A DNA stretch of 64,000 nt from Alphaproteobacteria bacterium (GCA_965209065.1 OZ242373.1:646202-710201); one strand, 5' to 3'. Numbered from the stretch's first letter, positions 27,157 to 60,691 are shown. Made by a program: numbers and translations. Notes: a model not told the origin generated them from the letters alone.

Positions 27157-27436
27157 GATGAAGAGTCCACACAGAATTACTCGCTTTTAACCCTTTTTCG
27201 AGATTTTGTCAAGGGATTTTTGAGGATTTTTTGAGGAGTTTAACCTTTTAGAGCTGTAAAAATGGCAATTTGCTACCCTTATCCGCTAGATTTAGTTTGA
27301 GAACGAGTGCTGGGGTTGATAGAATCTAAGTGTGTTCATTACGACAGTGATTCTATCATTGGCAAGGTAAAAAATGCCCTATTAGATGTATGGTTAAATG
27401 GATAAGCAGGCAACTTACTAAAGAGCGAATGAAATA

Positions 27437-28648: not shown

Positions 28649-28650
28649 CA

Positions 28651-29172: not shown

Positions 29173-29313
29173 GAAAAACTAAAAACCTTACAAGATGCCC
29201 AGTATCTCCATGTCTAACAGCCTTGAAAATATAGCCTGAGTTGATTGCCTCTTGACAGAATGAAAAAAGCCCCTATCCTTACCCTTTAGGAATTTTTACC
29301 ACTCGGAGGAAAT

Positions 29314-30060: not shown

Positions 30061-30155
30061 CACCACAGCGAGACCTTAAAAGATATATCAGGCACGGAAA
30101 TATGGTGCCTGCTTGCCAATAGCTTGACTGACTTTTAATTTTAGTTCATTATTTA

Positions 30156-31910: not shown

Positions 31911-31926
31911 AATATAAGAGAAAAAT

Positions 31927-32003
<77 letters not shown>

Positions 32004-42500: not shown

Positions 42501-45500
42501 ATTGAGGCAGCACTTAAATTAAGTGCACCACTGCTTCCATTCAAAGCAAAGTGTCCGCTTAAAGAAATATCTTCAAGCGCGGTAAGAGTGAGTGTCTCCA
42601 AAGCAACATAAGCGAACGCCATTGCAGAATGCAACGTGATGTTATTCGCGCTGAAGTTCGTATTATTGCTGTAATTTATGCTACCCCCTTGAGCGTTAAG
42701 CTTCAAATTGCCCGCGCCAAGCGTAATCGTGCGCGGCGGCGTAATACTAGCGGTTTGCGCTGTGAAAGACAGGTCCTTATCTGTTTCAATAACCCAGTTA
42801 GGCAAGGCAATATCTAAGGTGCCGGTGTAAGTGATGTCAAAAATTGCGGTATTAAAACTTGGGTTGCCCGAGAAAGATTGAGCGGTGACGAACAAAGTGC
42901 CGGTGCCAATATCATAGTTGCCCGCGAGGGTTAGCAGCCCTGATGAAACCAACAGAGTAAGGTTTTTATTGCTCGGCGTAGTGGGGGCGCCTGCTGCCGA
43001 AGAGATGGAGAGATTTCCTGCCACGCTAATAGAAGAGTTTGCTGTGCTAGAAAAAGCCATTGGCTGGGCGGTGGAGGTGAAGGAGAGACCATCTAATCCA
43101 TTTATGGAGCCATGGACGCTTACCGCGCGCGCGGTAACAACGCTTGAGCGAGTAAAGGTAGCTATCGCACTGCCGTTAAGCGCAATGCTAAACTGCGCGC
43201 CTGAGGTTGGCGTTCTATTGGTTAAGTTTATTTGCGGTATGGTTAAGATGATACTATTGTTTGCGGTCAAAGACAAAGAAGCGTTTGGCACGGTAGAAGA
43301 GTTGCGCAGAGAATTGGCTATCTTCGTCAAAGTGATAGAAATAGAATTAGCCGTTAAAGATACATTTTCTTTTATGAGTTCAACATCTAAAGCTGAAATA
43401 GTAAAACTAGCGTTTTCAAAAATGACATCACTAAAGTTAAAGCTGACATTCTTTTCAAACGCATTGATGGTTAAACTTCTACCATTTTGGAATACGCTCT
43501 CTCTTAAATTGAGTTCGCCCGTTTCCAAATAGTTTAGAGTAAGATGAGAGGTAGATAAACTCGTTGGAAATGTAATAGCCACACTTTCTAAAGTGATGGC
43601 GGCAACATTGAGATTACCACTAAGCGTGACGCTCTGTGTGCCGACAACCATAACATTGAGCCCGCGTTCGGCTTGGCTCGGCGCTCTCGCCGATGTTAAT
43701 GAAACAATATTTCCTGTTAAAGTAACATCTGCGCTTTTTGAGAAGAGAATTTTACCTAAAGCCTGCGTTTTTAGTGTTAGGTCATATTCACCGAGTGAGA
43801 TATCGCTAGTAACCTTGATATCACCTTGCGAGGACAAAGATAAATCACCCATCATTATCTCTATGCTGTTGAGAGTAACAACGGTGCGTGTTTCTATTGT
43901 TATGTTCGTGTTGATTGGGGTTGTGTCATCGCTGGCATAAGCCGAGAGGGAAAACGCATTAACCTTGAGAACGACGCCCCTTTTCACAGCTCCATCTAAA
44001 CTTAAAGAGTAAGTTTGTATGGAGTTGGTTCTTGCTGAGCTAATTGTTGTTAGTCCCCTATCGTATTGTGATGTCCCTGCTCCGCCAACAGAAATTCTAG
44101 CCCCTGACGACACGGTCAAGGAAATTTCTGTCGCGCTCTTTGTGATGGGGGGTGTCGAAGAGGAATAACCAAAATGATAATAGGTAAAAGAAAAAGTATT
44201 CGCTCTTATCTCAGAGCTGGCTGACGGGGTAGACAATCTCAAAGCAGAAATTTCAAGCGTTCCTGTGCCAATATCAATAATCCCATCTACAACGAGCGCA
44301 CCGGCATTAACAGAAAGATTTTTATTGCTAGCCGTAATAACCGTGCCTTCAGGCGCTGTAGAAGTAAGTTTAATAGTCTCATTCGCAGTTAAAGAGACAT
44401 GACTGCTTGTTGAAAAATTAATGAGGGTGCTTGCTTTTATTTCTAATAGCGCGTCAGCACTAAGATTGGCGTTCACATTGACAAACGCGCCTTCAAAAGT
44501 GAGGTCGGTAGTAGAGCTCGTTATCGGCACATCAATGGTGGCTATATTCGTTGCCACAAATTTACCTTCGTTCCCTTTCACACTCACGGAATTTGTTAGC
44601 CCATCGCCCGTAGCGCGCGCCGAGCGCTTTAGAGTAATATTCCCCGCGCTGAACGTTATTGTAGAATCCGTCTCTAATGGAAAATTGAGTGTTGCGTGCA
44701 ATGCTAACGTTAGCAAAGCGCCGGTAGCATTTATATTGTTGTTGATATTTAATATTGGCGAGTCTAACAACAGCGGAGACGAGGCTTGAAGAGAGCTACC
44801 AATTCTAATGCCATCGGTTCCAACAAGATTCAATGTTTTTCCTGCGGCAACGATATTTGTTATCCCTCCTGAGTTATTGGCAGTTGCTATGCCGTCGATA
44901 GTAAGCCACCTGCCCGTTAGGATTATATTTTCGCTTGTTGCTGATTGAATATTTATTGTTGAAGTGTTCTCTGCTCTTAAAGTGCCGGAAGAGGTTATGT
45001 TGCTAAATATATTTAAGCTAGGCGCTCTTAAAGTAAGCGAGCCACTTGTTTGATTGATAGTGTTATTGATGGTAACAGAAGCTGTTCCTCTAAAAATGGT
45101 TAGGACGCTATTGGAACTGCTTATGGTAGTGGTTGTTGCACCACTAAGGCTCATATTAGAGCCGCCTAGAATTATATGCTCGCTAGAAGAAGGCGCAGTG
45201 TTATTTAGCGCAGTGACATTGATTAGGGACAAACTACCGATGGAGGAGATATTTCTATTAGTGTTTAGAGTGGGCGTGTTCAAGGTGAGTGTGCCACTCG
45301 TTTGATTGATGGTGCTACTGGTGGTAATAGAAGTCGTCCCATTGAAAATAATTCCGCCGCCTCTGGTGCTAGTCATGGTAATCGTTTCCACATCACTGAT
45401 GCTCACATTAGAGCCTTCTAGGGTTACAGGTGCTGTGGTGGCTAAAGCATTGTTTAGCGTAGCGATGTTTTTTAGGGTTAAATTGCCACTGGTAATGATG

Positions 45501-47812
45501 CCGCTACCAGCGATGCTTAGCCTAGGCGTGTCTAAGGTGAGCGCGCCACTCGTTTGATTGATAGCACTATTGATAGGAATACTCCCTGCGCTCTTGAGCG
45601 TAACCGTGCCTGAGCCGGCAAGCGTAATCGTTTCCGCGCCACTAATGACTATCGCATCTGTACCCATTAGAGTAATTGCGTTATTAACTATTCCCGTTGG
45701 AAAATTTATGTTAGCAACATCGCTTATTATCAAAGCAGAGGCAACGGTGATGCTATTATCGATCCTGAGTGTTTGCGTGCTTAAAGTAAGCGTGCCGTTT
45801 GGTTGATTGATAGTGCTTCTGATAGTAATAGAATCCGTTCCGATAAAGGTGAGCGAACCACCACTAGAGGTCGTCAAGGTAGTGCTTGAGGTAGCGCTTG
45901 AACCACTAATGTCTATTGCCTCGCCCTCTAGAGTGATAGGAGGGCTATTGCCTCCTGTTGGGAAATTTATAGCGGCGGCATTGTTTAATCCCAGCCGATT
46001 GACGGAGGTGATGTCTTTGTTGATATTGAGTATTGGCGAATTTAAAACGAGTGAGCCACTCGTTTGATTGATAATGCTATTGCTAGTAAAAGAGCTTTCG
46101 CCAGAAAAAACGATCACAGCGTTATTATCGGTGCTTGTTACAGTAATTTTTGTTGCGCCATTGATGTTCATATTAGAGCCACCTAGAATTACAAACACAG
46201 TATCATCGGCAACTAAAGTGACGTTTAGCGTAGAGACATTATTTAAGGTTAAATCGCCGACTGTGGAGATGCCATGCGTAGTGAATGTTGGCGTATCTAA
46301 CACGAGCGAACCGCCTATTTTGAAAACATGAGTTGGAATGTCAATACGCTGTGTGCCCCTAAGCGTAACCTTGCTTGAGCCGTGCCAAAGGGCATTTTCC
46401 GTGTTAGTGATTTCTATCGACGGTGCCGTTAGAGTGATTATGCCGCTCGTTGGAAAATTTATGCTGTTAGCATTTCTTAGCGACAAGGAAATATTGGAAG
46501 TGATGTTATTATTTATATCGAGTCTTGGCGCGTTCAAAATGAGCCTGCCACTCGTTTGATTGATAATGCTATTGATTACAACAGAAGTCGTTCCTCTAAA
46601 AATGGTTGTCCCACGATTAGAATTCGTCATAGTAACCGTTGATGCGCCATTGAGAATCACCTTCGAACCTTGTAAGGTTATAAAGTTAGCGCCATTTAGC
46701 GTAGCGACATTAGTTAGGGTTAAATTACCACTGGTGGTGATGTTGCTATTGATATTAAGTGTTGGCGCATCTAAAGTAAGACCACCATTCGTTTTATTAA
46801 TAGAATTACTAACCGTTATAGAAGACCTTGCCCTTAATATGACATTGCCATTAAAATTTTTAATAGCACGAGGGGTAAAAGTAGCAACACTATAACCTGC
46901 ATCTTTTCTAACTTCACCGCCGCCATTTGTAATCAGACCATTACTACTGAGGATAGCAACTTTTATAAAAATAGCCTCTGGGTCAATTAAAAGTTCGCCT
47001 GCTTTAATGTCAGACAGATTAAAAGAAGCAAGAAATGTCTTACCTGATATTTCAACAAAGCCCCCATTGCTTTCTTGCGTGGCGTCTATTTTTCCCTCAA
47101 AAAAAGTAGAGCCGTCTGACCACACAATCACGCGCGGCGCGATAATGGAAGTGTTCGGCTCTATATGGGTTAATTGAGAATTGGTAATCTTCCCTTCCCC
47201 TTGATAATCACCACCAATTAAAACTTCTTCGCTTGCTCTTATATCGGCACCCGAACCACTCGTGGCAGCGATGCGCACTTCGTTCGCGCCCTCTACGATA
47301 ACTCTGCTCGCTTGAACCGCACCGCCAATATTGACAACATTCTCCTTGCCTAAACTTTGGAAATGAACTTTGCCTTGAGGCGAAGTAATCGAACCACGCG
47401 CAACAATATCTCCCGCGCGCGCCGAAGCAAGCAAGCCGCCCACATTCACCACCGAGCCTTCGTTAAAACGAATCCCCGCCGGGTTCTCTAACGAGACGCG
47501 TCCGTTCGCGGTAAGTGTGCCAGATATATTTGTTGTTGCATCATTGCGCACCTTAATAGAAATAAGCGATGAAGCTGATGGCTGTGTAATACGAACGACC
47601 TCGCCTTTAGCGATGTCAAAACTTTGCCAGCTTGTCGTTAGGGTGTCGCTATGTTGTTGAATGAGAAGCGGGTTCGATAGGTCGCCCGCGCCTGCGGTCA
47701 CACGCCCGCCACTCGGTGCGGCATGTAAGCCGACCGCTCCTAAAAGAGTTGCCAAACCTAAGGCAACAACGAATAATCGAGCAAAAAGTAAATAGCCCAT
47801 AAAAATATACAA
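36530..47812 (-). CDS. Giant TPS-domain secreted exoprotein (3760 aa), filamentous-haemagglutinin-like beta-helical repeat protein
   Basis: It has a signal peptide and a TPS domain (WQSFDIAKGEVVRITQP...ISGTLTANGRVSLENPAGIRFNEGSVVNVGGLLASARAGDIV). The rest is thousands of residues of G/T/S/N/L/I-rich beta-helix repeats, including a tandem array of about 180-aa units. Confidence 0.85.
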   Translation of the reverse strand: MYIFMGYLLFARLFVVALGLATLLGAVGLHAAPSGGRVTAGAGDLSNPLLIQQHSDTLTTSWQSFDIAKGEVVRITQPSASSLISIKVRNDATTNISGTLTANGRVSLENPAGIRFNEGSVVNVGGLLASARAGDIVARGSITSPQGKVHFQSLGKENVVNIGGAVQASRVIVEGANEVRIAATSGSGADIRASEEVLIGGDYQGEGKITNSQLTHIEPNTSIIAPRVIVWSDGSTFFEGKIDATQESNGGFVEISGKTFLASFNLSDIKAGELLIDPEAIFIKVAILSSNGLITNGGGEVRKDAGYSVATFTPRAIKNFNGNVILRARSSITVSNSINKTNGGLTLDAPTLNINSNITTSGNLTLTNVATLNGANFITLQGSKVILNGASTVTMTNSNRGTTIFRGTTSVVINSIINQTSGRLILNAPRLDINNNITSNISLSLRNANSINFPTSGIITLTAPSIEITNTENALWHGSSKVTLRGTQRIDIPTHVFKIGGSLVLDTPTFTTHGISTVGDLTLNNVSTLNVTLVADDTVFVILGGSNMNINGATKITVTSTDNNAVIVFSGESSFTSNSIINQTSGSLVLNSPILNINKDITSVNRLGLNNAAAINFPTGGNSPPITLEGEAIDISGSSATSSTTLTTSSGGSLTFIGTDSITIRSTINQPNGTLTLSTQTLRIDNSITVASALIISDVANINFPTGIVNNAITLMGTDAIVISGAETITLAGSGTVTLKSAGSIPINSAINQTSGALTLDTPRLSIAGSGIITSGNLTLKNIATLNNALATTAPVTLEGSNVSISDVETITMTSTRGGGIIFNGTTSITTSSTINQTSGTLTLNTPTLNTNRNISSIGSLSLINVTALNNTAPSSSEHIILGGSNMSLSGATTTTISSSNSVLTIFRGTASVTINNTINQTSGSLTLRAPSLNIFSNITSSGTLRAENTSTINIQSATSENIILTGRWLTIDGIATANNSGGITNIVAAGKTLNLVGTDGIRIGSSLQASSPLLLDSPILNINNNINATGALLTLALHATLNFPLETDSTITFSAGNITLKRSARATGDGLTNSVSVKGNEGKFVATNIATIDVPITSSTTDLTFEGAFVNVNANLSADALLEIKASTLINFSTSSHVSLTANETIKLTSTAPEGTVITASNKNLSVNAGALVVDGIIDIGTGTLEISALRLSTPSASSEIRANTFSFTYYHFGYSSSTPPITKSATEISLTVSSGARISVGGAGTSQYDRGLTTISSARTNSIQTYSLSLDGAVKRGVVLKVNAFSLSAYASDDTTPINTNITIETRTVVTLNSIEIMMGDLSLSSQGDIKVTSDISLGEYDLTLKTQALGKILFSKSADVTLTGNIVSLTSARAPSQAERGLNVMVVGTQSVTLSGNLNVAAITLESVAITFPTSLSTSHLTLNYLETGELNLRESVFQNGRSLTINAFEKNVSFNFSDVIFENASFTISALDVELIKENVSLTANSISITLTKIANSLRNSSTVPNASLSLTANNSIILTIPQINLTNRTPTSGAQFSIALNGSAIATFTRSSVVTARAVSVHGSINGLDGLSFTSTAQPMAFSSTANSSISVAGNLSISSAAGAPTTPSNKNLTLLVSSGLLTLAGNYDIGTGTLFVTAQSFSGNPSFNTAIFDITYTGTLDIALPNWVIETDKDLSFTAQTASITPPRTITLGAGNLKLNAQGGSINYSNNTNFSANNITLHSAMAFAYVALETLTLTALEDISLSGHFALNGSSGALNLSAASITSTATLTRNDLNITWTSTSASVPSWAVVENKNLSVSALTATLELPDSIDIGTGDLTLSATAMSGTPSITRGALTLIWTGTTASLPSWAVVANKDLVIQATSADISVPASLAMGSGSLTLDAVAGALVFASTSLSGGSITLKSKTQPRASDQAATIDATNITLSGKFNFGTGGLTLKASDITTQDDFALTRGGLFITWKGTSATIPAWAMVADKNLSVSALTATLTLPDSIDIGTGDLTLSATAMSGAPSITPNITRGLLTLIWTGTTASVPSWAIEANKNLSVSALTATLELPDSIDIGTGDLTLSATAMSGTPNITRGLLTLIWTGTTASVPSWAVEANKDLIVQATSADISVPASIVLGSGSLTLDAIAGALVFASTSLSGGNIILKSKTQPSASTQAATIDATNITLSGKFNLGTGGLTLKANSITTQDEFALTRGGLSITWKGASATIPNWAIVADKDLSVSALTATLELPDNINIGTGNLTLSATAMSGTPSITRGALTLIWTGTTASLPSWAVVANKDLVIQATSADISVPASLALGSGSLTLDAVAGALVFASVNLSGGSITLKSKTQPRASNQAATIDATNITLSGKFNLGTGGLTLKANSITTQDEFALTRGGLFITWKGTSATIPAWAMVADKNLSVSALTATLELPDSIDIGTGDLTLSATAMSGTPNITRGLLTLIWTGTTASVPSWAVEVDKDLIVQATSADISVPASVVLGSGSLTLDAVAGALVFASANLSGGNIILKSKTQPSTSAQDTSAQDTSAQETTIDATNITLSGKFNFGTGGLILKANSITTQDDFALTRGGLSITWKGNTAFIPSWAVVENKDLTIIAAKADISVPVSFSLGSGDLTLDAVVGALVFASVNLSGGSITLKSKTQPSTSNRDATIDALNTITLSGKFNFGTGDLTLKASDISTQDEFALTRGSLFITWKGASATIPAWAIVADKNLSVTALTATLELPANIDIGTGDLTLSATAMSGTPSITRELLTLIWIGDSASVPDWAVVEDKNLIVQATKADISVPTSLALGLGDLTLDAITAALAFDSSTSTNLSGRSITLKSKTQPRASNQKATIDVSTRMTLSGKFNFGTGDLDLKGDSITTQNDFAFIRRGLFILWRGGEAPVPSWAIEEGKDLTITAREASISVPNRFLIGSGNLVLEAKLGGINFDNSAPTKISASSITLIANAIHRASNQNLHLLSASVLLLSGDFSIGTGALSLEAQFIDYKAHFIRGDLSITWSSTSATIPDWAIEQDKNLSVTALITKLVLPSALDIGAGNLSLTAPELFVLGDFSLTRNALSLTLTGETDFVIPNWAIARDKSLSITTTQSNINAPASMDLGTGDFTLHTQEGAINFDKTSPTRFVANNITLISTSFLAVNNQNAEFIAAEELSLGGFMLFGEGDLTLNAQNIIFQEITQLGATNIRFTTNTKDEDITNIKDESVSIVATNDLVFENKAGNTVINLGVTTLSAGNNMIFRSNTFVFAYSLHLGPSLDAGRRDITLTTTSFISFADTRATIITGGNVSLMSPNRQQIPSDRNLIIRARGDIELEGSFFIGDGNALFYAGDKRGLGVIRFIATPSFRAGDYRLEQNGGLFPRKKPATFRSGDNSIDVIPLLIYTGIEVEYRVDWGRQLFVLNGSKDITLLDLQAFGENHQGFDFTNGVFDIGDNALTLITSGDIILPIALTERGIVIKARRITLRGRRLISADSLKQLTSHLTLEARESIVLDIDVTSNYNFVIDSASLSFSVQKAVNILAANIHIYAENQPEKNYQNVSLLAHNNIYLRGSLNIGLATLVLQAGEKINLERAESENEKDVEIKANRIIYRTLVNEEETAEGASSHNLMLNAENDIHLDTNLVLGSHIALRAGGSIITPESDEGFVIKALGKGKNLIFEQKYAARVNGNINLSASGNIVLRGALDRGEGFIVLNSNGLLDIQDTLRILGSDIDFTYSMVLLPSGHRLVLRQRSPSFAAPSNEGS
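38500..42620 (-). repeat. Tandem array of ~540-nt coding repeats (~7.5 copies, near-identical) inside the 3760-aa TPS gene
   Basis: Antisense-frame ORFs at 38895, 39531, 40386, 40920, 41478, 42210 translate to near-identical ~180-aa peptides. The sense protein shows a repeated unit ALTRGGLFITWKGTSATIPAWAMVADKNLSVSALTATLELPDSIDIGTGDLTLSATAMSG...KSKTQPRASNQAATIDATNITLSGKFNFGTGGLTLKA. Unit lengths are 534-558 nt, with one unit carrying a ~190-nt partial internal duplication. Confidence 0.85.
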
Positions 47813-47944: not shown

Positions 47945-50900
47945 TTAGGGGCAAATATTAGAATTGACAGAAAAGCACAAGCTATTTGTCAAAAAAGGCA
48001 TATCCATATCTGCTATGCTGCGCGCGCTCGCCAGCAAGGGCAATGTTATATCATGCCCGCCGAGCGCGGTAAGAAGCAACCTGCCATCAAAGGTATTACT
48101 TGTGATGCGCTCTACAAGCTCAAAGCCTATGAGCATAATGCTTTCTGAAATAAGCTCAACCGCCCTATTGTAATTTGTGCTCTGTCTTTGTTGTAGGAAT
48201 ATACTGCTCTCCTCTCCTCTCGCCTCGACACGATGGCTACCCGCGCCTCCTGTTGAAAAGAAAATAGTCCCACCGGCACGCAAGGTGATGCTGCCGTTAA
48301 TAACCAGATGATTAACAAGATGAATATCATTTGCAGCTTGTAAGGTGAAGCTATGGCTTGGGTCATTTTCATCATTGAACCTGCCGGCGCTATGGAATAT
48401 TCTATTGGCTCTAATTTCTACATCTCTCATTTCCTCGCCTGGAGAGGGGATTGATTTTATACGCCCACCGGCTTCTAGCCTTAAACTCGCAAGCCCTATA
48501 TTGAGCTGCCCTTGTAAAGAGATGTCTTGCTCACTTCTGAGAATAACATTTTGGTTATTGGCGATTGGCAACCCTCTTGAGTCGAAGTTTATATTGTTCG
48601 CTTCTATGAGGATAGGTTTGTAAAAAGAGAAGTTGATAGCGGCTGCCCTGATAGTAATATCATGTGTTGAGGTAATATCAGCATCAATTAGCACGTTGTG
48701 GGTTGCTTCAAGAATTAGATGGTTGATGACGTCGTCATTTGAGCTCGTTTTGATTCTCCTGCCTGACAAAACGATACTACTAGCTCTAATAACAAGGGGT
48801 CTATTTGTGTTTTCTATTCCTGTTAGGTCAATATCTCCGCTAGTGATTAAGATGAGAGGTATATCACCAAAATCAAACACGCCATCGGCGAAAGAAGCGC
48901 CAAAATATTCTTCACCGACCTCAAGCAAGGTCATTAAGTCAATGCCTTCATCGCCGGTGCGAACGATAAACTGATGCGCCCAATCCACCGCCGGCTGGAA
49001 TAGCTCTATGCCAGTATAAATAATAAGAGGTGAAATATCAATTTGATTATTCGCGAAGTAGAAATTGGCAGGCTTCTCGCTTGCAAAGAAGGCGCCATTT
49101 TGCTCTAACCTATACCGCTCAGCCGCGAAGCTTGGAGTTGAAACAAAGTTGATGACACCTAGCTTCCCATTATTTCCTGCAATAAGCCATACATCGCCCT
49201 CGCCTAAAAGGAAATACCCCTCTAGCGTGATGTTTCTATTTGCTCTTATGGTTAGGTTTCGGTTGCTGAAGGTTGCTTGCTCACTCGGCGAAACCAAAGA
49301 TATGCTCTCCCCCTCTATGACAGTATGCCTATCGTCAGCAAAAGTGATACCACCATTGGTTAAAGCAGTTAGGGTGAAGTTATTCTCGGCGGCTTTTATC
49401 ACGCCGCCGACATGTATCGTGGCAGCTGAGAAGGTAGCCGAAGTCTGAATTTCAATTTCGTTATCCGCGATAATCATCAAGCCATCTAGCTCTAGCGAAA
49501 AGAGCTTCTGTCTATCGTTAAAGGTCAAGTTATTGTCTGCGGTAATCTCTAGACTTGCGGTCGTGGGAGAGGAAACATCAATGTCTTTGCTATTCGTGTT
49601 GATGTAAATATCGTTCGCCACCAGCTTACTATTGCCGAGAATAAAGATACGCTCGGCATTGAGGGTAACATTACCTGTGCCAAAATCAAAACTACCCACC
49701 AGCGAAATGTTTTCTAATGCGGTCAAAATGAGCGTTTGGTTGCTTGGCGAGAGCCCATTATCATTGCTAGCCGTTAGGCTTATGCTTCTTGCCGAAATAG
49801 TGCCTGTGGCGGTGGTGGCAAAATTAATCACGCCCGCGCTATTGATGGTTAAAGCGCCATCACCAATTTCCAAAGAAGGCGGCAAGATGATGCCTGCTTG
49901 AAGCACGGTAACGGACATGTCTCCGTTCTCATCAATAGCCCATTGAGGAATGAAGGCTGTTTGGGCTCCGCTCCATGTGAAGGTGAGCGCGTTTCTGTTG
50001 AGGGTGGCGACGGTTGCGCCTACTCGGCCGGCGGATACAACTAAATTGCCTGTGCCGATATCAAACCTACCCCTTAAAGAGAGCGTTTCTATAGCGGTTA
50101 GGGTTAGGTCTTGATTGCTCGCCACGGGTTTCCTATTAGAGCCGAGGGTTATGTTTGCCGCGCTAATTTGGGTGGGGAAGTTCTTGCTAAAGCTGATAGC
50201 GCCCCCTATGCCCGACCTGACGGTTAAATTGCCGGTGCCAATATTGATATGCCCCTCAAGCAAGACAGAGCCTAGCGATGTGATAACAATGTTTTGATGA
50301 CTTGCCCGTTGTGATGCGCTTACAGAGGCTATCGTTAGATCGCCGACATTGACGATGGTTTCGGCTTGGGTATCGAAATTGACCGCACCCGCAAGCGCAC
50401 TGACGCGTAAATGACCTGCGCCTAGATTCACTATCGTCGGGAAGCTAATATCTGCGGTCTCAGCGATGATGCTAACACTACGATTTCTTATCATCATCCA
50501 GTTTGGGACAGCAAAGGGGTTCTGGGATTTCCATACGACTTCCAAAGAACCTAAAGTAATTACTGGGGAAACCAAAATAGAGCCAATGATGGGCGCGTTG
50601 AGAGTCAAATGCCCCGCGCCTATATTGATGTCTCTATCAACGGTAATGTTGGCGCTTTGCGAGACAATCACCAAATTACTATTCATTGCTATCATCCAAT
50701 CTTTGATGAAGAAATTTTCAATTCCATTCCAAATAATCGTAAGCGATCCCCTTTTTATGCCTGCCTCGACAACTGAAAACTCAGAAGTGGTTATAACGAT
50801 ATCCCCTACCCCTGTATCGAAATTGCCGGTGAGAGAGAGTGTATTTTCCGCTTCAATAATAAGATTGTGCTGGCTCCGCGCGGGGTTGCCGTTTGAGGTT

Positions 50901-53900
50901 AGCAGAATGTTGCTTGCGGTGAGCAAGGTTGCCCCCCTATTGTTGAAGTTGATTCCTCCTCGTTGAGCGGTCAAGGTCAAGGTAGCGTTGCCAATGTCAA
51001 TGGCGTTCGGGAGGTAAAGGTCAGCTAACTTCGCTATGATGGTTAAGTCTTTATTGCGACTAATAACCCAGTCAGGCACATCGAACACTTCGGGACCGGT
51101 GATGGTTATCTCAAGGCTATCCCTTAAAACGACCGGAAAGTTTAATGGCGTGTATAAAGAAAAGCCCGTTATGAATAAATCTCCTGTGCCGATGTTCAAC
51201 ACGCTAGGGATACCAACAAGAGCGTTTTCGGCGATGATGGTTAGGTTTTTATTCGTTGCTAGTGTCCATTGAGGAATGGTGAAGGTGGTTTCGCCTGTCC
51301 ATTTGAATGTGAGCGCATTGCGCGTTACGCTGTTTGCATCTGATATGGAAGGACCTTCAAGCCATAGGTTGCCCGTGCCGATGTCAATCGTAAGAGGCAG
51401 AATAAGCGGCGCTTGTTGAGAAATAACAGTTAAGTTTTTGTTTTGCACTATTGCCCATGCGGGAATAGAGGCGGTTGAACCCGTCCAAGTGATGTGGGTG
51501 TTGTTTCTAAAAAGAGTAGAGGAGTTCGTTAGGACTATATTTTGTCCTTCAAGCGTGATGTTGCCGGCAGGCGTGCCGCCGGTGGTGCGGAGATCAAAAT
51601 TACCATCAAGGGTGATATTTTCTATGGCAGTCAAGGTGAGGTCTTGATTGGTTTTGGTAGCAGGTCCCTTAGAAATAAGGGTTATACTTCTCGCCCTAAT
51701 GGTGGTTGAATCGTTTCCATCAAATATAATAGAGTGGCTACCAGAATTGACAGTAAACGAACCCGTGCCTAAATCAATAAAAAACGGCAAAATGATATTT
51801 GACTGAAGCGTAAAGGATGTATTTTGGTTTTTCTCCAAGAGCCAACCTAGAATTTGGAAATCATTTGGGTTGTTATAAATAAGCTCTATCCCACCTCGAA
51901 TAAAGTTGGGATTACCCACAATTAAGGTAGCGGTTATCTTTAATAGTCCCGTGCCAATATTATAATTACCATTTATGGTTAATGTCTCTAAGACCGTAAT
52001 CGTGAGCGCTTGGTTGCTTGAGAGGCGCGGCGTTCCGTTTGATGTCAAGGTTACTTCCCGCGCGGAGAGGGTGGTTGCGCCCTGAGAGTTAAAATTAATA
52101 GCCCCTGCTTGCGCTTCTATTACCACCGTGCCTGAACCAACATTAGCATTTCTAGGGATAAAAATGCCGCCTCGTGTAGCAATAATAGTCACATTTTTAT
52201 TTTCAAGGAAAGCCCATTGGTAAACATCAACCCTTCTTGCGTTCGTTAGCCTCATTATAAGGAAGTTTCTGTTAAAGCTCGTGGGAATAGTCGGCTGAGA
52301 TATAGAAAGAGCCGTGAGAGTAAGATTGCTCGTGCCAATATCAAATGCGCCATTTATTTTGGTTAAACCTGAAGTGGTTATGGTCAAATTTTGATTGCTC
52401 GCCACGGGGGCGCTACCCTGAGAAGTTAGCTCAACTCTTTTTGCCGTAATTACAGTTGCTCTATCATCTGCGAAGTTAATTGTATTCCTTGGACCTGAAA
52501 CCATTACCAAGACGCCGTCGGTAAAATCAAAACGCCCGCCAAACAAAATATCACCCCTTGCCCTAAGGGTGGCGTTTATGTTCACGAGGCTAGCGGCAGT
52601 GCCTGCCGAGAGGATAGTGATAGCATTCGCCTCTAATTCTATTGTGTTCCTACCGCTGTTAATAAATAGAACGCGTCCTACTTGCGCTTCAAACAGCAAG
52701 TTGCCTCCGCCAATATCTATATTATCCGACACGCTAATATCTGCGCTGACGGCTTTTACCGATAAATTCACATCTTCCACAACCGCCCAGCGTGGCGCGT
52801 AGGCGGTCGTCCCTGTCCATAGGAAAGTAATGCCGCGCAAGGTAATGCTGGTTGCTGTTCCGCTTATTGTTTCTGCGGTGATAAATAAATTGCCGTTTCC
52901 AATATCAATGGAGTCAGGTATTTGTAATGGGATTGCTTGCGCATCGACGTAGAGGTCGCTATTGACGGTCATTGCCCACTCGGGGATAGAAGCGGTCGTG
53001 CCCGTCCATGTTAGGAAAAGAGTCCCCCGCCTTATGATAGATGAACCGCTTGCGCTTGGAATAGAAAGTCTTAGCTCTCCATTGCCCATATTTACCAGTG
53101 CCGGCAGATCCAGCGTTGCGAAGAGCGAAGTGATGGATAAATTTTTATCTAATGCTATTGCCCAGTTTGGTATCGTAGCTGTAGTCCCTACCCAAGTAAT
53201 GTTTAAATCATTTCGCGTGAGGCTTGCGATGTTGGTAATTGAAGCAGCACTTAAATTAAGCACGCCACTGCTTCCATTCAAAGTAAGATGACCGCTTAGA
53301 GAAATTTTGTCGCTGGCGGTAAGGGTGAGTGTCGTAAAAGCAGTGTCAGCAAATACCGTTTGAGAATGTAAGGTGATGTTTTTGGCATTATAAACCGTGT
53401 TCTCGATATACTGTATGCGCCCTACTTGAGCGTTGATTTCTAAATTACCGTTTCCAATATCAATGAGGCGCGGCGGCGTGATATTAGCGGTGCGCGCGGT
53501 AAAAATGAAATTTACACCAAATTGAATAATCCACGGAGGCAAGACAGCATCTGCGGTGCCGGTATAAGTAATATCGAAAGTGGCAGCTTTGAAGCTTGGG
53601 TTGCCGATGAAGGCTTGAGCGGTGACGAACAAAGTGCCGGTGCCAATATCATAATTACCTAAGAGAGTTAGCGTCCGTGATGTGACCGACAGGGTAAGGT
53701 CTTGATTGCTCGGCGTGCTGGGTGTGCCTGCTGAATCGATGGAGAGGTCTTCTACCGTGTTAATAGAAGTGGGTATCGTGCTAGAAAAGGAGATTGGATC
53801 AACCGTGGAGATGAAGGAGAGATCATCTAATCCACTAATGGAGCCATTGAGGCTTATCGCGCGCGCGGTAATGACGGTTGAGCGGGCAAAGGTAGCTACC

Positions 53901-56900
53901 GCATTGCCGTTAAGCGTAATACTAAACCGCGCGCCTGAGACTGGGGCTCTGGTGGTTAAGTTTATTTGCGGTATGGATAAGGACATACTATTATTTACGG
54001 TCAAAGCCAAAGAAGCATCTGGTTCGATAGCAGTCGTGCGAATGGAACTAATAGCAGCCGTCAAGGTAATAGAAATAACATTAGCCGTTAAGGATACATT
54101 TTCTCTCATGAGGTCAATATCTAAAGCCGAAATAGCAAAGCTTGCGTTCTCGAAAACGACATTACCAAAATCAAAGCCGACATTCCTTTCAAGCGCGTTG
54201 ATTACTAGAATTCTACCATTTTGGAATAAATCCGCTGTCACATCGACCCTGCCCGTTCCCAAATAGTTTAGAGTAAGACGCGCGGGCAATAAATCACCCG
54301 GAAATGTAATATCTGTGCTTTCTAAAGTAACGGCGTTAGCATTCAAGTCGCTATTAATCGTGACGCTCTGTGTGCCAATAATCGTAACATCAAGCGCGCG
54401 CTCGGCTTGGTTGAGGATTCCCGCCATTGCCTCCGCTGTTGTTCCATCTGATGTTAGTGAAATCGTGTTTGCCCTTAAAGTAATATCTGCGTTTTGTGGG
54501 AAAAGAATTTTGCCTGTGCCTTGCGAGTCTAGCGCGAGGTCGTAACTACCGAGATTGATATTCCTAGCAAGATTGATACTACCTTGCGAAGTTACAGATA
54601 AATCACCCATAGTTACATTTATATCGTTGAGGGTGATATTGCCGCCTGTTTCTACATTTACGGTCATATTGATTGGGTTTGTGTCGCTACTTGAATTAGC
54701 TAAGATTGAAAAATTCCGCACCGTGATAGCTACTCCCTTTTTCACGGAGGTGTCTATACTTAAAAAGAGAGTTTGTGTTGCGTTATTTCTTTCTGCGCTA
54801 ATTGTCATCAGCCCTTTAGGGGATACTCCTGTTGGCGCCCCCCTAATGGTAGCCGAGCTATCCTCGGGCACGGTCAAGGAAATTTCAGTCTTTGCCCGTG
54901 TGAGAGTATCAGGCTCACCAGCAAAAAAACCGAAGTGATAATAGAGGAAAGAAAAGCTAGTCGCTTTTATCTCTGTGCTTGTTGATACTGCAGATATCCT
55001 CAAACCAAGGACGGAAAGCGTTCCCGTGCCAATATCAATAATCCCATCAAAAATAACTTCCGGAGCGGCAAGTGAAAGATTTTTATTACTTGGAACAATG
55101 GTTGTCCCTGCAGGTGTTTTAGAAGTAATTTTAAGCGTTCTCTCCGAAATTAAATTAATATTCTTACTTGTTGTAAAATTAATTTGAGTATTTGCTTTTA
55201 CTTCTAACAGACTACCCCCGGCAAGAGTATTATTCACATTGATAATATCCCCCTCAAAAGTGAGTGCTGCAAGGCTTGCCACGAGAGGATTAATGGTAAT
55301 ACTATTCGTTGCTACAAATCTAACATCTCTGCCGCTCACAGTGATAGTGCCCCCATTACTAAAAGTTATATTATCCCCCTCTAGGGTTATCGATGCACCA
55401 GCGGCTGAAGTGTCATTTATCTTAGTCAAATTGGTTAGGGTTAAGTTACCGCCGACGGTGAGGTCGGCGTCAGAAATGTAGGTTGGCGTGTTTATGGTTA
55501 GCGCGCCATTGGTTTTATTGACATTATTAGAAATCGTAATAGACGTTGTGCCGCGAAGCGTAAGTGCACTTGTAGTGGTAAAGGTAGTAGTAGTTGCTGT
55601 TGCGCTAGATATCTCTAACACATCACTCGTTATGGTCATAGCGGTGTTAGCTGGAAAGTTTATAGTGGAAACCTCGCTTATCAAAACGGCGGCACTGGAG
55701 GTGATGCTTCTATTGATATTGAGTGTTGGCGCTTCTAAAATAAGCACGCCGTTCGTTTGATTGATAACTCTATCGATTGTAATAGAAGTTCCCCCATCTA
55801 AAGTGATTGCCCCGCCATTAGTGCTAGACAGGGTGGTCGCTGTTGTTCCGCCTTCTATCCTCACATTATTTCCCCCTAGCGTTATCGAGCTACCCAAGGT
55901 TGAAGAGTTTCTTATTGTGGAGATTTCCTCTAGGATTAAATCACCTGTAGTAGAGGCGCTAGCACCGCTATTGAGTGTTGGCGTGTCTAAGATAAGATTG
56001 TTAGTTAATTTATTAATACTATTCCCAATAGTAAGAGATGTTGTGCCGTTAAACGTAGCCGTGCCTGAGCCGTCAATCGTAATCGTTGGTGAGCCACTGA
56101 TATTTATCGTCCTGCCCCTCATGGTGATTGCTGGATTAGCGGAAGTAACAGGGAAATTTATTCTTAACACATTCCTTATTATCAAATCACCGCTAGTGGT
56201 GACGTTGCTATTGCTATTGAATCTTGGTCCGTCTAGAACAAGCGACCCACTACCCGTTTGATTGACAATTTTATTGAATATGGTGGCTTCGCTAGATGTA
56301 AAAACTGTCCTCACGTTACCGGTTATGGTAATTGTTGCCGCGCCATCGACGCTCACATCTTCGCCTTTTAGGGTTATAGAAGAGCGCCCCCTACTCGCTG
56401 CAGTGTTAGCTAGCGTAGTGAGATTGTTTAGAGATAAATCGCCCCTAGTGGTGATGTTGCTAGAGATATTGATCGTTGGCGCGCTTATAGTGAGCGAGCC
56501 GACTACTAGATTGGCAAATTCATTTTCTTGATTCAAGTCGCTGTTAATAATAACACTCAGTGAGCCAGTAAGCCTAAGCACACGCGAACCCCTTATATTA
56601 ATTGTTGATGCGCCACTGATACTTAGCGTCCTAGCCGATAGGAATCTTGAGGTGTCGCTGCCGAAAGTTGGAAAGTTCATGGTGCTAACATTTTGTATTG
56701 TCAAGGCGCCGGTAGTGCTAACGCTACTATTGAAAGTGATTGTTGGCGCATCTAAGGTAAGACTGCCATTCGTTTTATTAATAGCATCAGTAATCGTTAT
56801 AGAAGTCCCTGCCCTTAATATGACTCTGCCGTTAAAATTTTGAATAGCAGTAGGTGTGATAGTATTGATGGAACCACCATCATTGACTCGAATATCACCG

Positions 56901-57817
56901 CCTCTATTTGTAAGCAGACTATTACTATTGGGGGAAATGCTTCTTACAACAATGTTACTGGGGTCAATTAAAAGTTCGCCTGCTTTAATATCAGCTAGAT
57001 TAAGAGGGCCAAGGGTCTCCTTGCCTGATATTTCAACAAAGCCCTCGTTACTTCCTTGCGTGGAGTCTATCTTACCTTCAAAAAAGGTAGTGTCGTCTGA
57101 CCACACAATCACACGCGGCGCGATGATAGAAGTGTTCGGCTCTATATAGGTTAATTGAGATTTGGCAATCGTGCCGCCTCCTTGATAATCACCTCCAATT
57201 AAAACTTCTTTGCTTGCTCTTATGTCAGCGCCCGAAGCAATGCGCACTTCGTTCACGCCCTCTACGATAACTCTGCTCGCTTGAACCGCACCGCCAATAT
57301 TGACAACATTCTCCTTGCCTAAACTTTGGAAATGAACTTTGCCTTGAGGCGAAGTAATCGAACCACGCGCAACAACATCTCCCGCGCGCGCCGAAGCAAG
57401 CAAGCCGCCCACATTCACCACCGAGCCTTCGTTAAAACGAATCCCCGCAGGGTTCTCTAACGAAACGCGTCCGTTCGCCCTAAGTGTGCCAGATATATTT
57501 GTTGTTGCATCATTGCGCACCTTAATAGAAATAAGCGATGAAGCTGATGGCTGTGTAATACGAACGACCTCGCCTTTAGCGATGTCAAAACTTTGCCAGC
57601 TTGTCGTTAGGGTGTCGCTTTCTTGCTGAATGTTTAAGGGGTCGGCGAGATTCCCTGCTCCCGCTTCTATGCGCCCACCGCTTGGGGCGGCATAGGCAGA
57701 GCCAGCCATTAAACCCATAAGGGTTAGCGCCAAAACCCCTAAAAACCCTAAAACATTAGTGGTTTTTGGAATTTTCACAAAAAATATGTCCAAAAATATG
57801 TTCTGTATAGAACTCAT
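47945..57817 (-). CDS. Giant TPS-domain secreted exoprotein (3290 aa), paralog of the 3760-aa gene
   Basis: N-terminal region with an extended signal peptide. Its TPS domain is almost identical at the nucleotide level to that of the 3760-aa gene (compare 57390-57640 with 47430-47680). Mosaic homology continues along the length (for example 53700-54270 versus 42900-43550). The C-terminal regions are diverged. Confidence 0.85.
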   Translation of the reverse strand: MSSIQNIFLDIFFVKIPKTTNVLGFLGVLALTLMGLMAGSAYAAPSGGRIEAGAGNLADPLNIQQESDTLTTSWQSFDIAKGEVVRITQPSASSLISIKVRNDATTNISGTLRANGRVSLENPAGIRFNEGSVVNVGGLLASARAGDVVARGSITSPQGKVHFQSLGKENVVNIGGAVQASRVIVEGVNEVRIASGADIRASKEVLIGGDYQGGGTIAKSQLTYIEPNTSIIAPRVIVWSDDTTFFEGKIDSTQGSNEGFVEISGKETLGPLNLADIKAGELLIDPSNIVVRSISPNSNSLLTNRGGDIRVNDGGSINTITPTAIQNFNGRVILRAGTSITITDAINKTNGSLTLDAPTITFNSSVSTTGALTIQNVSTMNFPTFGSDTSRFLSARTLSISGASTINIRGSRVLRLTGSLSVIINSDLNQENEFANLVVGSLTISAPTINISSNITTRGDLSLNNLTTLANTAASRGRSSITLKGEDVSVDGAATITITGNVRTVFTSSEATIFNKIVNQTGSGSLVLDGPRFNSNSNVTTSGDLIIRNVLRINFPVTSANPAITMRGRTINISGSPTITIDGSGTATFNGTTSLTIGNSINKLTNNLILDTPTLNSGASASTTGDLILEEISTIRNSSTLGSSITLGGNNVRIEGGTTATTLSSTNGGAITLDGGTSITIDRVINQTNGVLILEAPTLNINRSITSSAAVLISEVSTINFPANTAMTITSDVLEISSATATTTTFTTTSALTLRGTTSITISNNVNKTNGALTINTPTYISDADLTVGGNLTLTNLTKINDTSAAGASITLEGDNITFSNGGTITVSGRDVRFVATNSITINPLVASLAALTFEGDIINVNNTLAGGSLLEVKANTQINFTTSKNINLISERTLKITSKTPAGTTIVPSNKNLSLAAPEVIFDGIIDIGTGTLSVLGLRISAVSTSTEIKATSFSFLYYHFGFFAGEPDTLTRAKTEISLTVPEDSSATIRGAPTGVSPKGLMTISAERNNATQTLFLSIDTSVKKGVAITVRNFSILANSSSDTNPINMTVNVETGGNITLNDINVTMGDLSVTSQGSINLARNINLGSYDLALDSQGTGKILFPQNADITLRANTISLTSDGTTAEAMAGILNQAERALDVTIIGTQSVTINSDLNANAVTLESTDITFPGDLLPARLTLNYLGTGRVDVTADLFQNGRILVINALERNVGFDFGNVVFENASFAISALDIDLMRENVSLTANVISITLTAAISSIRTTAIEPDASLALTVNNSMSLSIPQINLTTRAPVSGARFSITLNGNAVATFARSTVITARAISLNGSISGLDDLSFISTVDPISFSSTIPTSINTVEDLSIDSAGTPSTPSNQDLTLSVTSRTLTLLGNYDIGTGTLFVTAQAFIGNPSFKAATFDITYTGTADAVLPPWIIQFGVNFIFTARTANITPPRLIDIGNGNLEINAQVGRIQYIENTVYNAKNITLHSQTVFADTAFTTLTLTASDKISLSGHLTLNGSSGVLNLSAASITNIASLTRNDLNITWVGTTATIPNWAIALDKNLSITSLFATLDLPALVNMGNGELRLSIPSASGSSIIRRGTLFLTWTGTTASIPEWAMTVNSDLYVDAQAIPLQIPDSIDIGNGNLFITAETISGTATSITLRGITFLWTGTTAYAPRWAVVEDVNLSVKAVSADISVSDNIDIGGGNLLFEAQVGRVLFINSGRNTIELEANAITILSAGTAASLVNINATLRARGDILFGGRFDFTDGVLVMVSGPRNTINFADDRATVITAKRVELTSQGSAPVASNQNLTITTSGLTKINGAFDIGTSNLTLTALSISQPTIPTSFNRNFLIMRLTNARRVDVYQWAFLENKNVTIIATRGGIFIPRNANVGSGTVVIEAQAGAINFNSQGATTLSAREVTLTSNGTPRLSSNQALTITVLETLTINGNYNIGTGLLKITATLIVGNPNFIRGGIELIYNNPNDFQILGWLLEKNQNTSFTLQSNIILPFFIDLGTGSFTVNSGSHSIIFDGNDSTTIRARSITLISKGPATKTNQDLTLTAIENITLDGNFDLRTTGGTPAGNITLEGQNIVLTNSSTLFRNNTHITWTGSTASIPAWAIVQNKNLTVISQQAPLILPLTIDIGTGNLWLEGPSISDANSVTRNALTFKWTGETTFTIPQWTLATNKNLTIIAENALVGIPSVLNIGTGDLFITGFSLYTPLNFPVVLRDSLEITITGPEVFDVPDWVISRNKDLTIIAKLADLYLPNAIDIGNATLTLTAQRGGINFNNRGATLLTASNILLTSNGNPARSQHNLIIEAENTLSLTGNFDTGVGDIVITTSEFSVVEAGIKRGSLTIIWNGIENFFIKDWMIAMNSNLVIVSQSANITVDRDINIGAGHLTLNAPIIGSILVSPVITLGSLEVVWKSQNPFAVPNWMMIRNRSVSIIAETADISFPTIVNLGAGHLRVSALAGAVNFDTQAETIVNVGDLTIASVSASQRASHQNIVITSLGSVLLEGHINIGTGNLTVRSGIGGAISFSKNFPTQISAANITLGSNRKPVASNQDLTLTAIETLSLRGRFDIGTGNLVVSAGRVGATVATLNRNALTFTWSGAQTAFIPQWAIDENGDMSVTVLQAGIILPPSLEIGDGALTINSAGVINFATTATGTISARSISLTASNDNGLSPSNQTLILTALENISLVGSFDFGTGNVTLNAERIFILGNSKLVANDIYINTNSKDIDVSSPTTASLEITADNNLTFNDRQKLFSLELDGLMIIADNEIEIQTSATFSAATIHVGGVIKAAENNFTLTALTNGGITFADDRHTVIEGESISLVSPSEQATFSNRNLTIRANRNITLEGYFLLGEGDVWLIAGNNGKLGVINFVSTPSFAAERYRLEQNGAFFASEKPANFYFANNQIDISPLIIYTGIELFQPAVDWAHQFIVRTGDEGIDLMTLLEVGEEYFGASFADGVFDFGDIPLILITSGDIDLTGIENTNRPLVIRASSIVLSGRRIKTSSNDDVINHLILEATHNVLIDADITSTHDITIRAAAINFSFYKPILIEANNINFDSRGLPIANNQNVILRSEQDISLQGQLNIGLASLRLEAGGRIKSIPSPGEEMRDVEIRANRIFHSAGRFNDENDPSHSFTLQAANDIHLVNHLVINGSITLRAGGTIFFSTGGAGSHRVEARGEESSIFLQQRQSTNYNRAVELISESIMLIGFELVERITSNTFDGRLLLTALGGHDITLPLLASARSIADMDMPFLTNSLCFSVNSNICP

Positions 57818-58008: not shown

Positions 58009-58085
58009 CGGAGTGTGGCGCAGCCAGGTAGCGCACCTCGTTCGGGACGAGGGGGTCGCAGGTTCAAATCCTGCCACTCCGACCA
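58009..58085 (+). tRNA. tRNA-Pro (anticodon CGG), CCA encoded
   Basis: Plus-strand cloverleaf CGGAGTG...CCTCG-TTCGGGA-CGAGG...CACTCCG-A-CCA. Confidence 0.85.
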
Positions 58086-58136
58086 TGTTAATGGCCAGTA
58101 TTAAGGACTTATTTACCATTCACGGCATTATGATTA

Positions 58137-58212
58137 TGGCGACCTCGGAAGGACTCGAACCTTCAACCCTCGGCTTAGAAGGCCGATGCTCTATCCTTTG
58201 AGCTACGAGGCC
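58137..58212 (-). tRNA. tRNA-Arg (anticodon UCU)
   Basis: Minus-strand cloverleaf GGCCTCGTAGCTCAAAGGATAGAGC...CTTCTAA...GGTTCGAGTCC...CGAGGTCGCCA. Confidence 0.85.
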
Positions 58213-59951: not shown

Positions 59952-60671
59952 TTATATTTTTAGCAATATATCAGTAAGCGCGCTGGGTTTAGAGAAAAAA
60001 GGCGAATGGTCGGTATCAAGCGAAACAATCTCCTTGATGGCGAGGTTTTCAGCCATTTTTCTTTGCCCATCGGGTCTAATTGCCTTGTCCCTCTCGCAGA
60101 CAATCGCCATTTTCGGCACTCTGCCTAAATTTTCTTCGCTCCAATGAACCGGCTGGCGCAACGCGCGCAGAGGCTCTAGGCAAAGTTTGGCTTTAGCGAA
60201 AGCTATATCATCAAGGGGAGTTTCATTATAAAAAATGTCTTTGATTTTTTCTTTTTTTATTCCCACGCCCCCGCGCAAGAAATGAACCTTTTGGTCTTCG
60301 GGTTGAATGGGAGAGACATCAGGCGCGAGGTCGGCGAGGCTCTTGCCCGAAGGCGGCACGAACGCGCACAAATAAACCAGCTTCTTTATCCTATCGGGAT
60401 ATTTCTCCCCCAAAGCCGTAATGGACATACCGCCCATGCTGTGTCCGACAAGAATAACGGGTTCGTCTGCCCTTTCTATTATTTTAGACATTTTTTTGAT
60501 GTAGGTAGCCAAGGTTGTTGTCCAAGGCAGAATTTTGCGCAAACTCCCGCTTTTATGGGCGGGCATGCTGGGCGCGTCTATCTTATGACCTGCTGCTTCT
60601 AAAATAGTATGAACCTTATGCCAGCACCATCTGCCGTGCCACGCGCCGTGAATCAAGACATAATGAGCCAT
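59952..60671 (-). CDS. Alpha/beta hydrolase (esterase; SABP2/methylesterase-like)
   Basis: 239 aa. The N-terminus HYVLIHGAWHGRWCWHKV and the nucleophile elbow GHSMGG. Confidence 0.8.
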   Translation of the reverse strand: MAHYVLIHGAWHGRWCWHKVHTILEAAGHKIDAPSMPAHKSGSLRKILPWTTTLATYIKKMSKIIERADEPVILVGHSMGGMSITALGEKYPDRIKKLVYLCAFVPPSGKSLADLAPDVSPIQPEDQKVHFLRGGVGIKKEKIKDIFYNETPLDDIAFAKAKLCLEPLRALRQPVHWSEENLGRVPKMAIVCERDKAIRPDGQRKMAENLAIKEIVSLDTDHSPFFSKPSALTDILLKI

Positions 60672-60691
60672 CTTTCCTCCTATTGGATTAT

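Follow-up and report, generated by a model that had tools for sequence, protein, structure and literature searches.

Homogenised secretion-domain DNA in a tandem array of giant TpsA-type exoprotein genes of an uncultured alphaproteobacterium

A stretch of 64,000 nucleotides (nt) of an Alphaproteobacteria bacterium (GCA_965209065.1, OZ242373.1:646202-710201), here called the window, contains three large open reading frames (ORFs) in tandem, genes A, B and C, which lie head to tail on the minus strand and have a 5' region that is conserved among them. This arrangement raises the question of what keeps the 5' ends (heads) of such large paralogs alike, and whether the likeness serves to exchange what lies downstream. 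An earlier inspection of the same DNA without database searches, here the sequence-only reading, had proposed that near-identical heads, made of a signal peptide and a two-partner secretion (TPS) domain, are a substrate for gene conversion or cassette switching that shuffles unrelated C-terminal effector or adhesin tails. Taken as a whole, the reading that we regard as probable is that of a TpsA array whose heads are homogenised by conversion, with a shared and unlinked transporter as the probable background, and in which tails are not switched.

Conversion tracts in the heads of three tandem TpsA-type genes

The closest match between genes B and C is a tract of 380 nt, in which 374 positions are identical (98.4%) at an offset of 9969 nt and which encodes about 127 amino acids (aa). 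It includes perfect runs of 139, 120 and 72 nt; the six differences are all substitutions, and the reading frame is kept. The boundaries of the tract are sharp to a few nt, one at 47650/47651 (window coordinates, as throughout) and the other at 47270, where a 12-nt insertion or deletion (indel) marks the junction with an older and more diverged flank, the young tract being nested within an older one of ~0.9 kb. The head match of about 98% announced by the sequence-only reading is thus real, while its limits and register had to be corrected: the interval 47430-47680 extends 30 nt beyond the 5' boundary and leaves out 160 nt at the 3' end, and it is 25% identical to its supposed partner in the literal register (offset 9960) and 93.6% in the true one. 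Gene A shares a shorter segment of ~240 nt (35990-36230), for which we measured 82.6% identity to B and 84.6% to C, in agreement with the value of about 85% given before. The signal peptides, which had been counted as part of the shared heads, do not belong to them, as this region is ~40-60% identical and its synonymous sites are saturated upstream of B aa ~47.

Synonymous divergence (Ks) was followed along the genes by a sliding Nei-Gojobori analysis of B against C, and A was also compared with B and C. Between B and C, Ks starts at a saturated level (~1.9 as far as B aa ~47), though the peptide APSGGR..AGAG..L is conserved there. It falls to 0-0.1 at aa 55-180, rises to 0.3-0.5 at aa 180-345, and is once more saturated beyond aa 350 and all through the C-terminal thirds. 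For A against B and C, a dip to ~0.36-0.43 is found solely inside the TPS core (A aa 131-170), with saturation elsewhere. Consistent with these levels, the pairs of codons that encode the same amino acid in B and C are identical in 120 of 123 cases in the tract, in 86 of 111 in the flank and in 18 of 53 elsewhere (Fisher tests on these fractions, 1e-6 and 1e-7). The longest unbroken stretch of identity among these pairs spans 67 codons, compared with 18 on average under permutation (p <= 5e-5). Because of the Ks levels and the codon tests, we consider the paralogs to be old, with several non-reciprocal exchanges of differing age superimposed on them. In summary, repeated gene conversion (non-reciprocal homologous recombination) among the paralogs has homogenised the DNA of the TPS core, and a shorter, older exchange includes gene A too.

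The sequence-only reading had also taken the three genes for giant paralogs with a TPS domain, and this was borne out by Pfam, by TIGR01901 and by a fold match. Scores for PF05860, the Pfam TPS family, were 47.3 bits for A, 52.0 bits for B and 49.9 bits for the head of C (curated cut-off 33.5 bits); the full-length C protein had no Pfam match, and PF05860 was matched only with its first 400 aa as query. TIGR01901 ('adhes_NPXG', curated cut-off 29.1 bits) reached 58.7 bits for A, 58 bits for B and 57.7 bits for C; the NPxG-type motif LENPAGI is present. An AlphaFold2 model of the C head (predicted local distance difference test, pLDDT, 82; predicted template modelling score 0.80) was compared by Foldseek with the PDB, where the best matches were the secretion domains of HxuA, EtpA and HMW1 (E 4e-10 to 6e-5, probability 1.00). 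By eye, APSGGR (APRGGR in A) is preceded directly in each protein by a hydrophobic, signal-peptide-like stretch with AxA at its end, and is followed by the TPS domain. Beyond the TPS head, Pfam detected no family in overlapping 600-aa chunks of A, B and C, and no VENN/pre-toxin (PT) or toxin domain was detected in the whole proteins or in the chunks. We conclude that A, B and C are a tandem array of paralogous TpsA-type (type Vb, two-partner secretion) giant beta-solenoid exoproteins.

The genes are closely packed, with gaps of 132 nt from C to B and 2 nt from B to A, and the ORF listing contains no small ORF of the immunity type between them or 3' of the array. The likely start of gene B is the ATG at 47800, giving the putative signal peptide MGYLLFARLFVVALGLATLLGAVGLHA, and that of gene A is the ATG at 36392; for gene C, an alternative GTG start at 57778 gives a product of 3277 aa and is the start chosen in the gene calls of the sister strains described below. 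Promoter-like hexamers lie upstream of all three genes, but no more of them than in shuffled sequence, and the counts of the promoter and terminator scans likewise did not exceed the shuffled expectation. The coordinates of the genes, tracts and bordering features are collected in Table 1.

Table 1. Features of the array and its surroundings, in window coordinates
Feature	Coordinates	Strand	Description	Evidence
Gene A	32061..36527	-	Shorter TpsA-type paralog, ORF of 1488 aa	ORF listing and TPS match
Gene B	36530..47812	-	Giant TpsA-type exoprotein, ORF of 3760 aa	ORF listing and TPS match
Gene C	47945..57817	-	Giant TpsA-type exoprotein, ORF of 3290 aa	ORF listing and TPS match
Gene D	1230..3470	-	Fourth TPS-domain protein, 746 aa	TIGR01901, 40.6 bits
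Youngest conversion tract, B copy	47271..47650	-	B aa ~55-181, core of the TPS domain including SWQSFDI and LENPAGI	Identity, synonymous sites and boundaries (see text)
Youngest conversion tract, C copy	57240..57619	-	Partner of the B copy	Same as B copy
Older conversion flank, B	46746..47270	-	Partner in C 56727-57239, ~85% identical	blastn, repeat families
Head segment of A	35841..36290	-	77-78% identical to the B and C heads, peak of 90-96% around 36021-36071	
Mid-gene block of B	42366..44503	-	71% (nt) and 58% (aa) identical to C 53103-55264	blastn
B-specific repeat array	39032..42464	-	546-nt (182-aa) units, 75-91% identical	Repeat families and self-blastn
tRNA-Met	31927..32003	-	Borders the array just downstream of gene A	
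tRNA-Pro and tRNA-Arg	58009..58212	+ (Pro), - (Arg)	Border the array just upstream of gene C	

Alleles of sister strains, gene bodies and tails

One ENA metagenome, ERZ25069786, contains contigs of co-occurring sister strains (L016, L017, L019 and L020). Three of these, L017, L019 and L020, are 98.4-99.4% identical to the window in megablast alignments and colinear with it down to coordinates 48604-48679, and they carry the DUF1329 gene, an NDUS4-like gene and an ortholog of gene C of 3277 aa. In the window and the three sister strains, gene C is colinear and 99.0-99.4% identical, its product having 3277 aa in all four, and the alleles differ at 51-91 positions over 9.1 kb, mostly as scattered single sites. 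Among the four strains, whose predicted lengths are the same, there is no sign of tail replacement in gene C; the strain-to-strain swapping of tails that the sequence-only reading had thought worth looking for in related genomes was therefore not seen in this gene.

The heads of the same four C alleles (n = 4) show a different kind of variation. Nine of their 20 polymorphic sites segregate exactly between the base of window B and the base of window A. These sites are 57677, a 4-nt patch at 57563-57568 (one toggling event, GTCGTT to ACGGTG), 57545, the dinucleotide 57479-57480, and 57464. Another 4-nt patch, at 56747-56752, is identical in window C and window B and differs in the other three strains. 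In terms of events, the kind shared with a paralog makes up 5 of 11 (P 0.001-0.008 under realistic null rates). Paralog-shared polymorphism is the expected signature of ongoing conversion between paralogs, and exchange thus continues in the natural population.

Downstream of the heads, B and C are homologous at several levels of divergence. The mid-gene block of 2.1 kb has Ks of 0.17-1.0 and a ratio of nonsynonymous divergence (Ka) to Ks of ~0.5-1, with the C-terminal thirds saturated, and may be either an exchange of intermediate age or a block that diverges more slowly; within it, the earlier estimate of about 60% aa identity (42900-43550 versus 53700-54270) was close to the 62% that we measured. 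Gene B is longer than gene C because of its array of 546-nt repeats, which is missing from C and A and looks like a recent internal expansion. Tandem Repeats Finder gave no match here, its longest period being 500 nt and thus shorter than the 546-nt unit. The 546-nt repeats inside B are themselves potential substrates for recombination. Just 3' of the TPS domain, at 46850-47050 (B aa ~261-330, C aa ~269-335), Ka equals or exceeds Ks (for example 0.53 versus 0.34), which suggests that the first turns after the TPS domain are under relaxed or diversifying selection.

The C-termini had been described as unrelated, and this holds for gene A, whose tail of ~230 aa, after a Pro-rich linker, is unlike those of B and C. 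It does not hold for B and C, which are 42-43% identical over their last 430-500 aa and align poorly only in the last ~70 aa. Both tails are predicted to be all-beta; a model of the C tail had a pLDDT of 65, and a Foldseek search with it gave no significant match. The C-terminal ~600 aa of B and C also align, at ~29%, with the tails of TpsA proteins from a related organism, and this alignment argues that the B/C tail is a conserved module and not a polymorphic effector.

Competing explanations and a shared transporter

Could the heads be alike without any exchange of DNA? The TPS core is generally the most conserved part of TpsA proteins, and in comparison with homologs of 36-59% identity the invariant columns cluster there, as would be expected if purifying selection on the domain sufficed. 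Such selection does not account for synonymous sites that are identical as well (120 of 123 codons, Ks ~0-0.1), for boundaries that are sharp within a few nt at 47650/47651 and at the 12-nt indel at 47270, or for the adjacent APSGGR..AGAG, which is equally conserved as protein yet saturated in Ks; we give this explanation next to no probability. Purifying selection alone is refuted by the synonymous-site analysis. An artefact of assembly or polishing, in which reads of one paralog entered the consensus of the other or the repeat was collapsed, deserves consideration since the metagenome assemblies behind the related contigs are built from long reads at low coverage (3.9-7.7x), and yet it is very improbable. 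Four independently assembled C alleles carry the B-like tract, the sister C alleles matching window B at ~370 of 380 positions, and long reads with unique flanking anchors readily bridge 380 nt; moreover the tract is in frame with six differences that are substitutions, the nested gradient from 98% to 85% to saturation is unlike a collapse, and the contig of the window is 1.69 Mb long. A single recent event, be it a partial duplication or an unequal crossover that replaced a head, could by itself make an identical segment of 380 nt or 0.9 kb, and the array must in any case stem from tandem duplication. We consider it unlikely as a substitute for recurrent conversion, given that three Ks levels between B and C and the separate dip in A require at least three events of differing age, and that the patches in the strains are further recent exchanges; besides, a one-off replacement of an internal segment with both flanks intact is itself gene conversion.

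The other explanations accept recombination and give it another role. In the cassette-switching proposal, the identical heads would act as handles through which an expressed head acquires different C-terminal effector tails, as for Neisseria tpsA/tpsC or the orphan CT modules of cdiA. Conserved heads followed by more divergent bodies in tandem, perfect runs of 139, 120 and 72 nt that are long enough for RecA-dependent recombination, and the different tail of ~230 aa in gene A would all fit it. We nevertheless hold it to be quite improbable, and the polymorphic-effector architecture claimed by the sequence-only reading fails with it. Every copy is complete, with its own start codon, a diverged putative signal peptide and a TPS domain; neither 5'-truncated silent cassettes nor small ORFs in the short gaps between the genes were found, nor were VENN, pre-toxin and toxin families in the Pfam scans; the tails of B and C are homologous (42% identical, predicted all-beta, and ~29% conserved in the related organism); and gene C is colinear with the same product length in four strains. 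In addition, the homology is one-sided and in direct orientation, and a crossover there deletes or duplicates instead of exchanging: since the heads are direct repeats 9969 nt apart, reciprocal crossover would remove or add a whole gene unit and would not shuffle tails. Such a crossover between heads could, for example, fuse the promoter and signal peptide of C to B. This leads to a further possibility, which we regard as doubtful, that the array is a programmed switch of copy number or expression, in which a RecA crossover in the 380-nt direct repeat excises C and puts B behind the C promoter and signal peptide, or expands the array, and micro-conversion yields mosaic alleles of the TPS domain. 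If true, it would give population-level variation in the giant surface protein displayed, by a mechanism for type Vb proteins that is mediated by heads and not by tail cassettes.

Among these alternatives, recurrent conversion between the heads of full-length TpsA genes is the reading that we prefer, and a selective rationale for it may lie in secretion. The TpsB outer-membrane transporter recognises its cargo by the TPS domain, and some TpsBs export more than one TpsA (PMC5422565). A cognate TpsB gene usually lies adjacent to the TpsA gene; none was found in the 64-kb window, where Pfam scans of the large ORFs detected no TpsB (ShlB/POTRA), and the gene calls up to 10 kb around the related arrays L001-L003 (see below) include none. 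Conversion together with selection would keep all cargoes compatible with one shared, unlinked TpsB, and would leave the signal peptides, the post-TPS region and the bodies free to diverge. Because the TPS domain is recognised by TpsB, and because none of the window's four TPS genes (A, B, C and the more distant gene D) has a TpsB linked to it, we consider a shared unlinked transporter the likely rationale; compatibility with it is probably what is selected, by analogy with the systems in which one TpsB serves several cargoes.

Several observations weigh against this picture. When the null is made as permissive as possible, by counting every mutation at a site where A and B differ, the excess of paralog-shared events in the C head has P = 0.13. 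As the sister contigs are assemblies of 3.9-7.7x long-read coverage, some polymorphisms are maybe consensus errors or cross-talk between paralogs during polishing, and the direction and donors of the strain-level patches were deduced from the paralogs of the window only. For two dense substitution patches in gene C of L019 (s19), at window 55948-55969 (6 changes in 22 nt) and 56306-56380 (6 in 75 nt), the window offers no donor sequence; assembly errors, or conversion from paralogs within that strain, could explain them. Finally, the shared-TpsB rationale is itself an inference, and the search for TpsB spans 64 kb of a ~1.69-Mb genome.

Genomic setting and known systems

Gene D, the fourth TPS gene, lies ~28.6 kb from gene A, has a Pro/Gln-rich tail and no adjacent TpsB was found for it; like the three heads of the array, it exceeds the curated cut-offs of both PF05860 and TIGR01901. 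Its head is ~38% identical (aa, blastp) to the TPS head L002a of another contig, and it stands outside the exchange group. Downstream of gene D, an ORF resembling cytochrome P450 (1-1190, minus strand; heme motif FGTGPHVCLG) runs off the start of the window.

The neighbours of the array are an island with GmrSD and a methylase, a tuf-rpoBC cluster, a DUF1329 protein, a hydrolase, a hybrid kinase and a Sel1-repeat protein; directly downstream of gene A, the tRNA-Met is followed by the convergent GmrSD gene. The island (27333-32003), which extends from tRNA-Tyr/Gly to tRNA-Met, contains an Eco57I-like methylase, T5orf172 and GmrSD. It differs from the corresponding region of L016 (1-5254), although the two strains are 98.6% identical elsewhere, over the rpoBC-tuf region. 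In L016 its place is taken by a different restriction-modification island, which comprises a HaeIII-type system, DUF8426 and an integrase of the phage type; the integrase gene adjoins a 61-nt 3' fragment of tRNA-Met at the position that gene A occupies in the window. The island looks like an integration hot spot that abuts gene A. On the other side of the array, 113 of the 235 differences between the window and L017 (15.4 kb in total) fall in 1 kb, 60500-61500, in the region of the hybrid histidine kinase and the hydrolase, which is probably an imported recombinant segment. The Sel1-repeat gene (62781-63944, minus strand) is built from 108-nt repeats (~9-11 units, 70-74% identical), and the sister strains have genes of different size, or fragmented ones, at this position.

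RpoB of the window is 73% identical to that of the nearest other lineage and 66-67% identical to those of Parvibaculum and Bradyrhizobium, and on this protein the host is placed among the deep-branching Alphaproteobacteria, with a small genome. In the nearest complete relative, at 73% RpoB identity, the neighbourhood is not syntenic. A scan of GTDB genomes with the head alignment returned only distant TPS proteins, at most 47% identical, and no related reference genome, and a scan of JGI metagenomes with a 24-mer of the tract returned one chance match, in a membrane-protein gene. The matches listed by the head homology search were all shorter than 700 aa, and the giant orthologs of the same collection were not among the matches listed.

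A more distant organism in ERZ25069786 (contigs L001-L003) also has tandem TPS genes, with heads 52-58% identical (aa) to those of the window. At the nt level, its heads are 83-89% identical to each other and ~67% identical to those of the window, and there the signal peptides are conserved too. Its giant TPS genes on L001 and L002 comprise one of 2390 aa, a copy fragmented by frameshifts and one of 4091 aa. The bodies are 25-30% identical (aa) between the window and L001-L003, too weak for orthology, and because of this low identity concerted evolution across species is not separable from independent (lineage-specific) duplication.

Among known systems, a close counterpart of the array is that of Moraxella catarrhalis, where MhaC secretes both MhaB1 and MhaB2, two proteins with 99% identity over aa 72-399 (PMC3699455). 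Pairs of paralogs comparable to these are HMW1A/HMW2A of H. influenzae, LspA1/LspA2 of H. ducreyi and FhaB/FhaS of Bordetella. As in Moraxella, the genome of the window has at least two large TpsA paralogs with near-identical N-terminal secretion regions and diverged remainders; the single TpsB that serves several cargoes in Moraxella corresponds here to a transporter that is presumed. The window differs in having three genes in direct tandem, no TpsB found within 64 kb, signal peptides that are not shared, a shorter identical part (~127 aa) and bodies that match no known Pfam repeat, in an uncultured, small-genome alphaproteobacterium. The tpsA/tpsC genes of Neisseria and the orphan cdiA-CT/cdiI modules are similar in that TpsA-family genes are followed by related sequences, and homologous recombination between tpsA/tpsC or cdiA copies has been documented or proposed (PMC3848433, PMC5422565). 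The tpsC cassettes of Neisseria meningitidis have no 5' end or TPS domain, and have a central homology block and immunity IORFs (PMC3848433). Truncated cassettes, a central homology block, unrelated toxic C-termini and interleaved immunity genes are features of the tpsC and cdiA systems of which the window array shows none. With the type-2 TPS domains of HxuA (4rt6/4i84), EtpA (8cpk/8vbb) and HMW1 (2odl), the heads have in common a predicted right-handed beta-helix and the NPxG-type motif, but the identity is only 13-21%, and no heme/hemopexin, flagellin-binding or glycosylation partner genes lie nearby.

Gene conversion is also what drives the concerted evolution of bacterial paralogs such as tufA/tufB and the rRNA operons. 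The array shares with them a sharply bounded synonymous-site identity between copies that are otherwise diverged or separate, and differs in that homogenisation is confined to a functional sub-domain within a much larger gene and that the copies are adjacent direct repeats.

In conclusion, the locus joins an already known pattern, that of TpsA paralog families with homogenised secretion domains, and calls for no new mechanism. It draws attention to a family of very large beta-solenoid exoproteins with no known domain beyond the TPS head and no linked transporter gene found; in a genome of ~1.7 Mb, from an alphaproteobacterial lineage about which little is known, the array genes take up ~26 kb. 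With exchange visible among strains that co-occur in one metagenome, it offers a clean natural example of how conversion keeps a shared recognition module uniform while the remainder of each gene diverges.

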